Positions 54,893 to 59,112 of a stretch of DNA of 64,000 bases are shown in pieces; the stretch's first letter is position 1; the number at the start of each line of letters is the position of its first letter. The stretch is from assembly GCF_044324785.1 (NCBI RefSeq), contig NZ_CP172129.1. One strand, written 5' to 3'. The notes beneath the pieces are model-generated. The model was not told the DNA's origin, did no database searches, and saw only the letters and a program-made list of their open reading frames with translations. The stretch is from Escherichia coli (GTDB lineage: Bacteria; Pseudomonadota; Gammaproteobacteria; Enterobacterales; Enterobacteriaceae). A program made the position numbers and the translations under genes.

Positions 54893-55456
54893 ATGTACAG
54901 TCAGTTAAGAGAACGTATCCGGCTGATGCGCGCAAGGCTGGATAACGCCGCGCCGGTTGCTGAAATCCGGGCTGAATCTCAGCTTTTTGTGACTCCTGCC
55001 CCGGTCTGTGATCGCCTGGTGACGCTGGCGGGGATCAGCAACCGTGATCACATTCTGGAACCCTCTGCCGGCACCGGGGCCATACTGCGGGCGATTAGGG
55101 ATACCGCGCCGGTAGCCATGTGTGATGCGGTGGAAATCAACAGCGGGCTGGTCCGGTATCTGCGGGAAAATTTTAACGGTGTCAGGGTTCAGTGTGGCGA
55201 CTTCATGGAATGGCAGCCGGTGCAGTATTACAGCCGGGTTATCATGAATCCGCCGTTCAGCCACGGGCAGGATATCCGGCATATCCTGCGGGCCTTTTCC
55301 CTGTTGCGTCCGGGTGGCGTGCTGGTCGCCGTCTGTCTCAACGGGCCACGCCAGCAGGAGAAGCTGTTACCGTTTTCTGACGTCCGCGAGGAGCTGCCGC
55401 GCGGCACATTTGCTTATACCGATGTCCCGACGATGATTATTCGTCTGCGTGCCTGA
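54893..55456 (+). CDS. Orphan DNA N6-adenine methyltransferase (187 aa)
   Basis: SAM-binding EPSAGTGAI and catalytic NPPF motifs. Confidence 0.75.
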   Translation: MYSQLRERIRLMRARLDNAAPVAEIRAESQLFVTPAPVCDRLVTLAGISNRDHILEPSAGTGAILRAIRDTAPVAMCDAVEINSGLVRYLRENFNGVRVQCGDFMEWQPVQYYSRVIMNPPFSHGQDIRHILRAFSLLRPGGVLVAVCLNGPRQQEKLLPFSDVREELPRGTFAYTDVPTMIIRLRA

Positions 55457-55700
55457 AGACTCCGGGCAGGCGGGAGGATAAATGCTCGTCTGCCCGCGCC
55501 GGGAAAAGACCGCGCGCCGGTGGCGCTGAAAGGGGCCGCGCTCACGCGCCGCCCCTTTCATTACGCGGAAATTCTGCTGTGGGCTTCTGTCTTTTCAGAT
55601 CTGTCATTTGTCTGTTACTGATGATGTTCCTGCTACTGCTACTGTTTTTCTTTTTTCTGCTGCTCTGATTACTGTCTGTCTTGTTCTTCTTCTGCCTGTG

Positions 55701-56228
55701 CCTTTTCCGGGCGTCCCCCTGGCGGGGCGGGCTGTCGTGAACGGAGCCAGCGGAGCTGTCTCCGCCCTGGCGGGCTTCCATCCCTGACGCAAAACCCCTG
55801 GCTTGCAGCGACTGTTCCGGTCGCGCGCCTCTGTCGCGCCGTGGCCTGCGCTCCTGGCATCCCGGCAAAAGGCCGCCGGGATGTAAGGCGCAACGCCGTT
55901 TCGCAAACCGCGCTTCACGTCGTTGCGGCGGGTCCCTGCCCGTTGTTATGTCCGGTGCCATTCACCTGTTTAAGCCCCTGTCGCCGGGGGCAAAGACAGC
56001 CACAACCGTCTCCGCCAGTCCAGGGGTGAAATGCACATCCCGCAAAACTTTTTGCCCAAAAGCAGGCAAAAACTTTTGCGGTCTGCCCCCGGACAGTCGT
56101 TTCCTGCCGTGGCAGTGATGCCCCTTGCGGCGAAGGTTTTCAAAAAGGTGATGGTGAATACCGGAGGGAACAAAAGGCAGGTCCCCGCAAAACGTCAAAA
56201 CCGCGGCTCCCGAAACTCAAAAGATGAT
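55701..56228 (+). repeat. Structured ~530-bp repeat, copy B (Frpo/ssi-like), upstream of ssb
   Basis: See copy A. Confidence 0.6.
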
Positions 56229-56261
56229 GGGGCTGAAAACATCAACAGAAGGAGACACATC

Positions 56262-56894
56262 ATGGCAGTTCGTGGCATTAACAAGGTCATTCTCGTAGGA
56301 CGCCTGGGAAAAGATCCGGAAGTCCGTTACATCCCCAACGGGGGCGCAGTGGCAAACCTGCAGGTGGCCACATCAGAAAGCTGGCGTGACAAACAGACGG
56401 GGGAGATGCGGGAGCAGACAGAATGGCATCGTGTGGTGCTGTTCGGCAAGCTCGCGGAAGTGGCAGGTGAATATCTGCGCAAGGGCGCGCAGGTCTACAT
56501 CGAAGGTCAGCTTCGCACCCGTAGCTGGGAGGATAACGGTATCACCCGTTACGTCACCGAAATTCTTGTTAAGACCACGGGCACCATGCAGATGCTGGGA
56601 CGTGTCGCAGGTGCTCAGACTCAGCCGGAAGAGGGGCAACAGTTCAGCGGTCAGTCTCAGCCGGAACCACAGGCGGAGGCCGGTACGAAAAAAGGAGGCG
56701 CAAAAACGAAAGGCCGTGGACGTAAGGCCACGCAGCCGGAGTCGCAGCCGCAACCGCCGGAGAGTGACGATTACGGGTTTTCAGATGATACCCGTTCTGA
56801 ACGACTGACTGTGACAACCGCTCCGTCCTGTGCGGGGCATCACCGGAGAGATGAGGATGAGCGAATATTTCAGAATACTTCAGGGGCTGCCTGA
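56262..56894 (+). CDS. ssb: Plasmid single-stranded DNA-binding protein SSB with an aberrant C-terminal extension
   Basis: OB-fold N-terminus [23 protein letters not shown]...; ends ...[14 protein letters not shown]... instead of an acidic DD-I-P-F tail. Confidence 0.85.
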
Positions 56895-57090
56895 CGGTCC
56901 TTTTACCCGCAAACATGCCGAAGCTGTTGCCGCACAGTACCGGAACGTCTTTATCGAGGATGACCACGGCGAACAGTTTCGCCTGGTTGTCCGTAATAAC
57001 GGTGCAATGGTCTGGCGTACCTGGAATTTTGAGGACGGTGCCGGGTACTGGATGAACCATGCCATCCGTGATTTCGGCATTCTTAAGTAA
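56857..57090 (+). CDS. Hypothetical small leading-region protein (about 77 aa)
   Basis: [17 protein letters not shown]... following ssb. Confidence 0.4.
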
Positions 57091-57153
57091 GAGAGGTGCC
57101 GGACGGGAATGCGTCCGGCAGACATACAACCATCCCGGTCAAAGGAGAAATAT

Positions 57154-59112
57154 ATGTCGGTTACAGAGTCTAAGACAAAAACGGAGCGTAAATCCAGCCG
57201 TAAACCGTCAAAAGAGCAGGAGACTGCCCTGTCTGCCCTGCTGGCGCAGACGGCGGAAGTGAGCGTGCCGCTGGCCTCACTGATTAAATCACCACTGAAT
57301 GTGCGCACGGTGCCGTATTCTGCGGAGTCTGTCAGCGAACTGGCGGAGTCCATTAAGGGCGTTGGCCTGTTGCAGAATCTGGTCGTGCATACCCTGCCTG
57401 GTGACCGTTACGGTGTCGCCGCAGGTGGTCGCCGACTGGCTGCACTCAACATGCTGGCAGAGCGTGGCATCATTCCGGCTGACTGGCCTGTCCGTGTGAA
57501 GGTCATTCCGCAGGAGCTGGCGACGGCGGCATCAATGACTGAAAACGGTCATCGTCGGGATATGCACCCTGCTGAACAGATTGCCGGATTCCGCGCAATG
57601 GCGCAGGAAGGCAAAACACCTGCACAAATCGGTGATTTGCTGGGCTATTCACCCCGCTATGTCCAGCGAATGCTGAAACTGGCTGACCTTGCGCCTGTCA
57701 TCCTCGATGCGCTGGCAGAAGACCGCATCACTACCGAACACTGTCAGGCGCTGGCGCTGGAGAACGACACCGCGCGTCAGGTACAGGTGTTTGAAGCCGC
57801 CTGTCAGTCGGGATGGGGCGGAAAACCGGATGTGCGGGTTATCCGCAATCTGATTACGGAAAGTGAAGTGGCGGTGGCGGGGAACAGTAAATTCCGCTTC
57901 GTGGGGGCTGATGCTTTCTCACCTGACGAACTGCGTACTGATTTGTTCAGCGATGACGGGGACGGTTATGTCGACCGCGTGGCGCTCGATGCTGCCCTGC
58001 TGGAAAAACTCCAGGCTGTCGCTGAACACCTTCGGGAAGCCGAAGGCTGGGAATGGTGCGCCGGACGCATGGAGCCTGTCGGTGAGTGCCGTGAGGATGC
58101 CGGAACATACCGCTGTTTGCCGGAGCCGGACGCGGTGCTGACGGAGGCGGAAGAAGAACGCCTGAACGAACTGATGACGCGTTACGACGCGCTGGAAAAC
58201 CAGTGTGAGGAATCCGACCTGCTGGAAGCAGAAATGAAGCTGATGCGCTGCATGGCGAAGGTCAGAGCGTGGACGCCGGAGATGCGTACCGGAAGCGGTG
58301 TGGTGGTGTCCTGGCGTTACGGTAATGTGTGTGTCCAGCGTGGTGTGCAGTTGCGCAGCGAGGATGACGCGGCTGACGACGCTGACCGCACGGAACAGGT
58401 GCAGGAGAAAGCATCAGTGGAGGAAATCAGTCTGCCACTGCTGACGAAAATGTCTTCCGAACGCACGCTGGCAGTCCAGGCGGCACTCATGCAGCAACCG
58501 GACAAATCCCTGGCACTGCTGGCATGGACGCTCTGCCTGAATGTGTTTGGCAGCGGAGCGTACAGTAAACCAGCACAAATCAGCCTGGAATGTAAACATT
58601 ATTCGCTGACCAGCGATGCGCCGTCAGGGAAGGAAGGTGCCGCGTTCATGGCGATGATGGCAGAAAAAGCCCGTCTTGCGGCCCTGTTACCGGAGGGATG
58701 GTCACGGGACATGACGACGTTCCTGTCACTCAGTCAGGAGGTGCTGTTATCCCTGCTCAGTTTCTGCACCGCGTGCAGCATCCACGGCGTTCAGACCCGC
58801 GAGTGTGGTCACACGTCACGCAGCCCGCTGGACACGCTGGAGAGCGCCATCGGTTTTCACATGCGTGACTGGTGGCAGCCGACAAAAGCAAACTTCTTCG
58901 GACACCTGAAAAAGCCGCAGATTATCGCAGCTCTGAATGATGCCGGACTGTCCGGTGCCGCACGGGATGCAGAGAAGATGAAGAAAGGTGATGCGGCTGA
59001 ACATGCAGAGCACCATATGAAAGACAACCGCTGGGTGCCTGGCTGGATGTGTGCACCACATCCACAGACGGATACCACTGAACGCACCGATAACCTGGCT
59101 GATGCCGCCTGA
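57154..59112 (+). CDS. ParB-like nuclease domain protein of the leading region (652 aa)
   Basis: N-terminal ParB/Srx-like segment (NLVVHTLPGDRYGVAAGGRRLAAL); long acidic C-terminal region. Confidence 0.7.
   Translation: MSVTESKTKTERKSSRKPSKEQETALSALLAQTAEVSVPLASLIKSPLNVRTVPYSAESVSELAESIKGVGLLQNLVVHTLPGDRYGVAAGGRRLAALNMLAERGIIPADWPVRVKVIPQELATAASMTENGHRRDMHPAEQIAGFRAMAQEGKTPAQIGDLLGYSPRYVQRMLKLADLAPVILDALAEDRITTEHCQALALENDTARQVQVFEAACQSGWGGKPDVRVIRNLITESEVAVAGNSKFRFVGADAFSPDELRTDLFSDDGDGYVDRVALDAALLEKLQAVAEHLREAEGWEWCAGRMEPVGECREDAGTYRCLPEPDAVLTEAEEERLNELMTRYDALENQCEESDLLEAEMKLMRCMAKVRAWTPEMRTGSGVVVSWRYGNVCVQRGVQLRSEDDAADDADRTEQVQEKASVEEISLPLLTKMSSERTLAVQAALMQQPDKSLALLAWTLCLNVFGSGAYSKPAQISLECKHYSLTSDAPSGKEGAAFMAMMAEKARLAALLPEGWSRDMTTFLSLSQEVLLSLLSFCTACSIHGVQTRECGHTSRSPLDTLESAIGFHMRDWWQPTKANFFGHLKKPQIIAALNDAGLSGAARDAEKMKKGDAAEHAEHHMKDNRWVPGWMCAPHPQTDTTERTDNLADAA

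Follow-up and report, generated by a model that had tools for sequence, protein, structure and literature searches.

We analysed a stretch of 64,000 nucleotides (nt) from Escherichia coli (contig NZ_CP172129.1 of assembly GCF_044324785.1; hereafter, the window), asking about two genes near its right end. In a six-frame list of open reading frames (ORFs), a 187-amino-acid (aa) methyltransferase with an NPPF motif (54893-55456) and a 652-aa ParB-like protein (57154-59112) lie on either side of ssb, a layout that a sequence-only reading of the window had described and that motifs and homology confirm. Both are ordinary leading-region genes of IncF plasmids, already known and catalogued: older annotations name the methyltransferase gene ydcA and the ParB-like gene ycjA or yfjB (also parB2), and YfjB was renamed HerB in a bioRxiv preprint of 7 July 2026 (PMC13370423). 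The genes and repeats in question are the following:

52362-52985, minus strand: Frpo-type (class 1) repeat copy A, a putative single-stranded DNA (ssDNA) promoter upstream of the ydbA-ydcA operon, with a hairpin at ~52630-52957
53202-53432, plus strand: conserved 76-aa arginine-rich ORF, first in line behind Frpo copy A, preceded by a strong ribosome-binding site (AAGGAG)
53484-54845, plus strand: ydbA, encoding a 453-aa DUF3560 protein (Pfam E 5e-37), the proposed non-catalytic partner of the methyltransferase
54893-55456, plus strand: ydcA, encoding the 187-aa class I S-adenosylmethionine (SAM)-dependent methyltransferase with gamma-class motif order (Pfam MTS, motifs, AlphaFold model)
55619-56244, minus strand: Frpo-type repeat copy B, by position Frpo2, the putative driver of ssb-yubL-herB-psiB-psiA, with a hairpin at ~55889-56216
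56262-56894, plus strand: ssb, the plasmid single-strand binding protein gene (Pfam SSB; ATG at 56262 set by homology to F Ssb)
56857-57090, plus strand: yubL/yfjA, a DUF905 gene (Pfam E 2e-32; product 99% identical to the F protein)
57154-59112, plus strand: herB (yfjB/ycjA/parB2), encoding the 652-aa ParB-like protein, predicted to bind cytidine triphosphate (CTP) (homology to F YfjB; Pfam ParB_N and HTH_ParB)
59167-59601, plus strand: psiB (Pfam PsiB, E 2e-64)
59598-60317, plus strand: psiA (Pfam PsiA, E 3e-39)
61009-61635: Frpo-type repeat copy C, by position Frpo1, assigned through the repeat family

The interval is the leading region of a ColV/ColIa IncF (F-like conjugative) plasmid, bearing out its earlier placement. 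This assignment follows from the neighbours identified with Pfam (a KlcA/ArdB-type antirestriction gene, DUF1380, DUF3560, SSB, DUF905, PsiB, PsiA and DUF932) and from the order downstream, where psiB, psiA, hok/flm, DUF932 and an SLT gene follow one another and where, in the near-identical plasmid pSF-088-1 (99.3% identity), the SLT gene is succeeded by traM, traJ and traY. The origin of transfer, oriT, would lie just outside the window on the right. Annotation shows no restriction endonuclease in the leading region or in the near-identical ColV plasmid that covers most of window positions 1-47600, in line with the earlier remark that the methyltransferase lacks a cognate restriction gene. 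The 7-kb region was matched in at least 5000 PLSDB plasmids, and tblastn with the ydcA product returned at least 5000 records, mostly from Escherichia and Klebsiella and 77% conjugative. An apparent 1.2-kb length difference in the first plasmid search reflected no insertion; it was an artefact of joining matches to repeated Frpo copies. Samuel et al. (Nature 2024) list three of the families as enriched in leading regions: ParB as family 5; family 26, labelled ‘adenine-specific DNA-methyltransferase’, with 1957 members at a median position of 11 and KEGG calls divided between DNA methylase and Erm; and DUF3560 as family 28, with 1913 members at position 12, one ORF from family 26.

The three direct repeats, each ~620 nt long, are 85-96% identical to both Frpo regions of F. 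Copy A shares 92% identity with the F Frpo2 region and 92% with copy C, and copy B is 89-95% identical to the F Frpo copies. Two of the three repeats, A and B, were folded as ssDNA of the transferred (minus) strand, each yielding an imperfect hairpin of ~330 nt (z = -6.6 and -6.4, respectively). With their high identity to Frpo1 and Frpo2 and this long imperfect hairpin on the transferred strand, they resemble the class 1 ssDNA promoters, which comprise Frpo1 and Frpo2 of F and ssi1-3 of ColIb-P9/pESBL and fold likewise. For ssDNA-promoter activity itself we rely on the literature: in F, ssb, yfjA and herB depend on Frpo2 for their early expression (PMC9849209; PMC13370423). Given its homology to F Frpo1 and Frpo2 (PMC9849209), copy A would be expected to act as a promoter, and zygotic expression of ydbA-ydcA would follow from the position of copy A upstream and from the repeat-bracketed layout of the cassette. 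A sigma-70 consensus scan returned no ordinary plus-strand promoter before either operon, which fits ssDNA promoters without being positive evidence for them.

While F has two Frpo copies, the window has three, the extra one apparently serving ydbA-ydcA. Copy A has no separate counterpart in F, where klcA, a DUF1380 gene and a hypothetical gene are followed by a single Frpo copy and then by ssb; in its left part, that single copy resembles copy A. As the alignments have it, the ydbA-ydcA cassette is bracketed by direct Frpo repeats. Homologous recombination between these repeats can delete the cassette, and the reverse event can insert it. Recombination of this kind was raised for Frpo1 and Frpo2 by Couturier et al. 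(PMC9849209). The best matches of the repeats to F are mosaic, copy B being closest to F Frpo1 and copy C to F Frpo2, which suggests gene conversion or recombination among Frpo copies.

The sequence-only reading missed the DUF3560 gene upstream of ydcA, along with that unit's own Frpo copy. In all five diverged plasmids examined (methyltransferase identity 56-99%), a DUF3560 gene stands directly upstream of the methyltransferase gene; four of them have a gap of 45-47 nt, and in the fifth DUF3560 itself is broken into two ORFs. Among distant relatives, 81 of 135 representatives of 50% clusters carry DUF3560 and the methyltransferase domain as a fusion, confirmed by Pfam in eight of ten sampled. 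These fused proteins (570-780 aa, from metagenomic mobile elements) hold both modules in the YdbA-YdcA order within a single polypeptide with a 30-60-aa linker; they match the YdcA family profile at E 1e-43 to 1e-50, and their N-terminal parts are 40-53% identical to YdbA. In the enterobacterial plasmids, by contrast, two genes broken apart at the linker encode 453 and 187 aa; 47 nt separate them, and the second has a ribosome-binding site of its own. This pattern of fusion and adjacency identifies YdbA and YdcA as the two halves of a split unit, YdcA being the catalytic one. Long relatives, searched for domains that would settle the substrate, contained no helicase, nuclease or specificity domain, just DUF3560, LPD30, one DnaJ fragment and assembly chimeras.

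The gap between the two genes (54846-54892) is conserved in length, at 45-47 nt in four plasmid lineages. Within it, a short palindrome, CCCGGGAAAATCCCCGGG, immediately precedes the ribosome-binding site of ydcA and might serve in translational control. Ahead of ydbA, the 76-aa ORF, which gave no Pfam or NCBIfam match, is annotated as hypothetical in pSF-088-1, and a 231-nt ORF occupies the equivalent place in a Klebsiella IncFII (IncFII(K)) plasmid. Family-level NCBIfam matches were likewise absent for YdcA, YdbA and the DUF905 protein.

YdcA displays the motifs of a gamma-class enzyme in the order X (QLFVTP, aa 30-35), I (EPSAGTG, aa 56-62), II (E81), III (DF) and IV (NPPF, aa 119-122). Across 29 homologs, the most distant at 51% identity, all five vary little or not at all, and YdcA is therefore very likely an active enzyme. 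Its Pfam matches are those of a generic class I methyltransferase, with solely MTS passing the cut-off (27.1 bits vs 23); in the Pfam and NCBIfam searches it passed no N6_Mtase, Eco57I or NCBIfam family cut-off. Among solved proteins, the nearest in sequence is M.TaqI, a gamma-class N6-adenine DNA methyltransferase: its catalytic domain is 22-24% identical to YdcA and shares with it the order of motifs X, I, II, III and IV, an N-terminal TP motif and (N)PP(Y/F). M.TaqI, however, carries a C-terminal DNA-recognition domain of ~180 aa, whereas YdcA stops after the Rossmann core: its AlphaFold (AF2) model (predicted local distance difference test, pLDDT, 87) consists of an N-terminal helix and a bare Rossmann core, with no target-recognition domain in its 187 aa. 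Nor is there an HsdS-like specificity gene nearby, according to the ORF list and the pSF-088-1 annotation. These similarities give good support to YdcA as an amino-methyltransferase, with adenine-N6 as its most likely target. Of the earlier label of adenine methyltransferase, the methyltransferase core thus stands, and adenine is drawn from homology that cannot separate substrates. DNA as the substrate is suggested by genomic context. Relatives are located in phages, integrative elements and polyvalent-protein contexts.

The same data bear on another possibility, in our view improbable, namely that YdcA, together with YdbA, methylates host RNA (ribosomal or transfer RNA, at adenine or guanine) or a host protein and so forms a second host-reprogramming factor. 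The best NCBIfam matches, all sub-threshold, are the Erm and KsgA ribosomal RNA (rRNA) adenine methyltransferases and PrmC; Foldseek with the YdcA model lists Dim1/KsgA, TrmN, Trm11, PacII M, M.TaqI, ErmE and type I HsdM at similar scores; the family profile ranks MJ0882, M.TaqI, RsmA/KsgA, Erm and HemK together; and the missing DNA target-recognition domain agrees with a substrate other than DNA. All of the RNA-methyltransferase matches nevertheless lie far below their family cut-offs, the N-terminal FxTP motif and the best pairwise match favour M.TaqI, the fused relatives give weak Pfam matches to N6_Mtase and Eco57I, and DNA modification is the usual theme in the genetic settings in which YdcA relatives are found.

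Turning to the ParB-like protein, the ORF list gives a 667-aa form starting at 57109, but the 652-aa form from 57154 is preceded by a strong ribosome-binding site (AAAGGAG) and aligns end to end, without gaps, with F YfjB (613 of 652 residues identical, 94%), which covers the full-length four-domain layout of HerB. ParB_N and HTH_ParB together span residues 43-222, and among solved proteins the CTP clamps Spo0J, ParB and Noc come closest. The arginine-rich motif, whose loss on alignment would have spoken against the earlier assignment, is intact: GGRRLAA at aa 91-97 includes R94, and E130, R168, R172 and K175 are kept as well. The 39 substitutions relative to F lie mostly outside the motifs. 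As in F, the gene sits between yfjA (DUF905) and psiB, in the order ssb-yfjA-yfjB-psiB-psiA downstream of Frpo2 (copy B here). Alignment and gene order identify the window's protein as the F YfjB/HerB ortholog.

The role of the ParB-like protein, described in the earlier reading as unresolved, can consequently be read from published work on that 94%-identical ortholog. F HerB is a homodimer with an N-terminal ParB-like CTP-binding domain, a helix-turn-helix (HTH) domain with the DNA-contacting residues R168, R172 and K175, a third domain (D3) and a fourth (D4) that forms a novel dimerisation core resolved by cryo-electron microscopy; in the CTPgammaS crystal structure, Box II corresponds to G91-A97 and E130 coordinates Mg (PMC13370423). 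It is made solely in fresh transconjugants, from Frpo2, and forms nucleoid foci that depend on R94, E130 and R168/R172/K175 (PMC13370423). Chromatin immunoprecipitation sequencing (ChIP-seq) gave 156 chromosomal peaks and none on F; no parS-like motif is reported, and HerB altered the expression of ~870 host genes (PMC13370423). Deletion of herB left transfer frequency and plasmid positioning unchanged, raised the acquisition cost by ~10% and caused the plasmid to be outcompeted in repeated-transfer competition (PMC13370423). Early transient YfjB expression from Frpo2 had been reported before (PMC9849209), and ParB2 of pED208 is translocated by the type IV secretion system (PMC8406263).

That the protein would rather be a ParB/Srx-type nuclease (Osa-like) or a second partition protein is very unlikely. 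It does have a ParB_N domain, and some ParB/Srx proteins are DNases or NTPases; yet it keeps the CTP-binding Box II/III residues and the HTH, as do the ParB, Noc and Spo0J clamps, and its F ortholog combines a CTPgammaS-bound structure and chromosome binding with the unaffected plasmid positioning and missing parS-like motif described above (PMC13370423). The earlier suggestion of nuclease or NTPase activity is accordingly upheld in its NTPase part, insofar as F HerB binds CTP, and finds no support in its nuclease part. Nor does the locus have the arrangement of a canonical ParABS system: as the earlier reading observed, no ParA adjoins the gene, its neighbours being the DUF905 gene and psiB, and the plasmid's own SopA/SopB lie ~10 kb away, at 45522-47602 (tblastn with F proteins).

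The earlier reading had presented the two genes together around ssb. We find no functional pair: they occur independently. F carries herB and lacks ydbA-ydcA, whereas plasmids of Paramixta and Pantoea carry ydbA-ydcA and lack herB, the Pantoea plasmid being without ssb too. Given this independent occurrence and the separate Frpo repeats, the methyltransferase and the ParB-like protein are independent modules. A joint action of methyltransferase, Ssb and ParB-like protein as one unit, in the manner of ParB-methyltransferase fusions, is highly improbable. The genes adjoin, and ParB-methylase fusions and ParB domains recur in mobile-element polyvalent proteins, but the two modules have separate (putative) Frpo promoters in addition to their independent distribution, the recurrent fusion partner of the methyltransferase domain is DUF3560 rather than ParB, and HerB ChIP-seq was without enrichment on F itself (PMC13370423). 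The Paramixta manurensis plasmid CP054213, which carries ydbA-ydcA and a beta-class methylase, has a 93-aa ORF at 10231-10512 in the herB position, between DUF905 and psiB, and represents a natural herB-less variant of the operon.

Taken as a whole, the region would hold two independent early-entry modules, each read from a hairpin promoter that forms solely on the incoming single strand, a picture we favour with moderate confidence. On plasmid entry, hairpins in the transferred strand would recruit host RNA polymerase. The first module, made up of Frpo copy A, the 76-aa ORF, ydbA and ydcA, would encode a two-part methyltransferase in which YdcA provides a bare SAM-binding catalytic core with the NPPF active site and YdbA may supply substrate binding or recruitment. 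This pair might methylate adenines of the entering DNA, with low sequence specificity, before restriction enzymes meet the double-stranded form; we give DNA as its target about even odds, well ahead of an RNA or protein target. The second module, consisting of Frpo2, ssb, yubL, herB, psiB and psiA, would make Ssb, PsiB/PsiA and HerB, the last as a dimeric CTP-binding ParB-like clamp that works on the host chromosome, alters host transcription and makes acquiring the plasmid less costly.

Several points weigh against this picture. KsgA/Dim1, Erm, TrmN, HemK and MJ0882 score about as high as M.TaqI against YdcA, and since DNA-adenine and rRNA-adenine or other amino-methyltransferase matches score alike, homology does not fix the substrate. 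The YdbA model (AF2, pLDDT 88) gave no informative solved fold, with no match past coiled-coil noise, which makes DNA binding by YdbA a guess. A search of the literature on ydcA, ydbA and DUF3560 for experiments yielded gene lists only. The -35 and -10 boxes of copy A were not identified, a simple sigma-70 scan giving nothing on the plus strand. Finally, the data on HerB stem from a preprint without peer review that concerns the F allele (PMC13370423), and the window allele differs from that one at 39 positions.

A more specific version of the first module, which we put forward tentatively and hold to be doubtful on balance, has YdbA and YdcA as a previously uncharacterised two-component methyltransferase of mobile elements, in which YdbA, with long helical hairpins and no solved fold relative, would replace the target-recognition domain and direct a minimal gamma-class core to incoming ssDNA or to host RNA. 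If true, this would provide a second, mechanistically distinct route of entry-phase protection beside M.EcoGIX, borne as a two-component enzyme by at least 5000 sequenced enterobacterial plasmids.

Among leading-region methyltransferases, M.EcoGIX (of pESBL) and M.BceJIII alone have been studied, both of them beta-class with a DPPY motif (PMC7736820); F has a homolog of M.EcoGIX in YubD (PMC12672017), a 227-aa ‘DNA methylase’ with PF01555 (N6_N4_Mtase) and DPPY. For such methyltransferases, the usual hypothesis in the literature is pre-emptive methylation (Samuel et al. 2024; for M.EcoGIX, Fomenkov 2020). YdcA resembles these enzymes in being a leading-region methyltransferase without a restriction partner, co-oriented with the early genes for transcription from the transferred strand, behind an ssDNA promoter (putative for YdcA, the Frpo-type repeat), and with a presumed role in protection from restriction. 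It differs in its gamma-class NPPF core, unrelated in sequence to the beta-class DPPY enzymes of PF01555, in its DUF3560 partner, where M.EcoGIX is a single protein, and in its promoter, a class 1 Frpo copy as opposed to the class 3 ssDNA promoter of M.EcoGIX. Membership of YdcA in the M.EcoGIX/M.BceJIII family of ssDNA-specific leading-region methyltransferases, to which the matching location and orientation and the reported commonness of M.EcoGIX homologs in IncF plasmids (Fomenkov 2020) might point, is next to negligible and was rejected on direct comparison with F YubD: BLASTP gave E 0.22 with only a 10-residue match at SAM motif I, the motif orders belong to different classes, with DPPY ahead of the SAM motif in the beta-class family and X-I-II-III-IV with NPPF in YdcA, Pfam returned no PF01555 match for YdcA, and tblastn with F proteins found no homolog of YubD, the IncF representative of M.EcoGIX, in the window. 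A similar function is possible all the same, and YdbA-YdcA would then be a functional analogue of M.EcoGIX, not a relative. With YubD missing from the window, YdcA is the sole leading-region methyltransferase left on the plasmid.

Two further methyltransferases, a 290-aa one found on 48 contigs (P0019) and a 205-aa one (P0101), are chimeric, joining a YubD-like beta-class N-terminal part to a YdcA C-terminal part. The joint falls in SAM motif I (LDP-SAGTG) in P0019 and further downstream in P0101, and both look like recombinants between two leading-region methyltransferase genes.

As originally written, the finding comprised standard IncF leading-region genes, one of them now with a published function, and raised no new question by itself. 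None of the papers searched states that YdcA and M.EcoGIX are not related, that YdbA and YdcA stand in a split-gene relationship, or that the cassette has a third Frpo copy dedicated to it and is bracketed by repeats; these three points are modest but useful for the design of experiments. The YdbA-YdcA pair ranks with the most frequent leading-region genes in plasmids of clinical E. coli and Klebsiella, and it is unrelated to the sole kind of leading-region methyltransferase studied so far. Its two-gene nature implies that ydbA and ydcA should be expressed and deleted together, and may explain why no methylation motif has been tied to YdcA. Should the pair protect entering DNA from restriction, it would help to determine which hosts resistance and virulence plasmids can colonise.

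Within the Frpo2 operon, Ssb of the window is 96% identical to F Ssb over residues 1-176. Near 56790, ssb has a 1-nt deletion relative to F (GATATCCCGTTCTGA in F, GATA-CCCGTTCTGA here), which frameshifts the C-terminus and swaps the DDIPF partner-binding tip for a 36-aa extension reaching into the DUF905 gene. As pSF-088-1 carries it too, the deletion is a lineage trait and not a read error of a single record.

At 45522-51137, the segment of the F leading region that bears YubD, YubE and the first DUF1380 gene is missing (tblastn with F proteins), and two further features are present:

48094-48287, after sopAB: fragment of one F leading gene (tblastn with F proteins)
49767-50738, minus strand: IS110-family transposase, directly upstream of klcA

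Matches to relatives identify the remainder of the window (1-47600) as the backbone of a ColV/ColIa virulence plasmid. Its cargo comprises iroDEN, cvaABC/cvi, colicin Ia with its immunity gene, sitABCD, iucABCD/iutA and sopAB, and a TnAs1/class 1 integron region accounts for the GC content of 63-66% at 22-26 kb.

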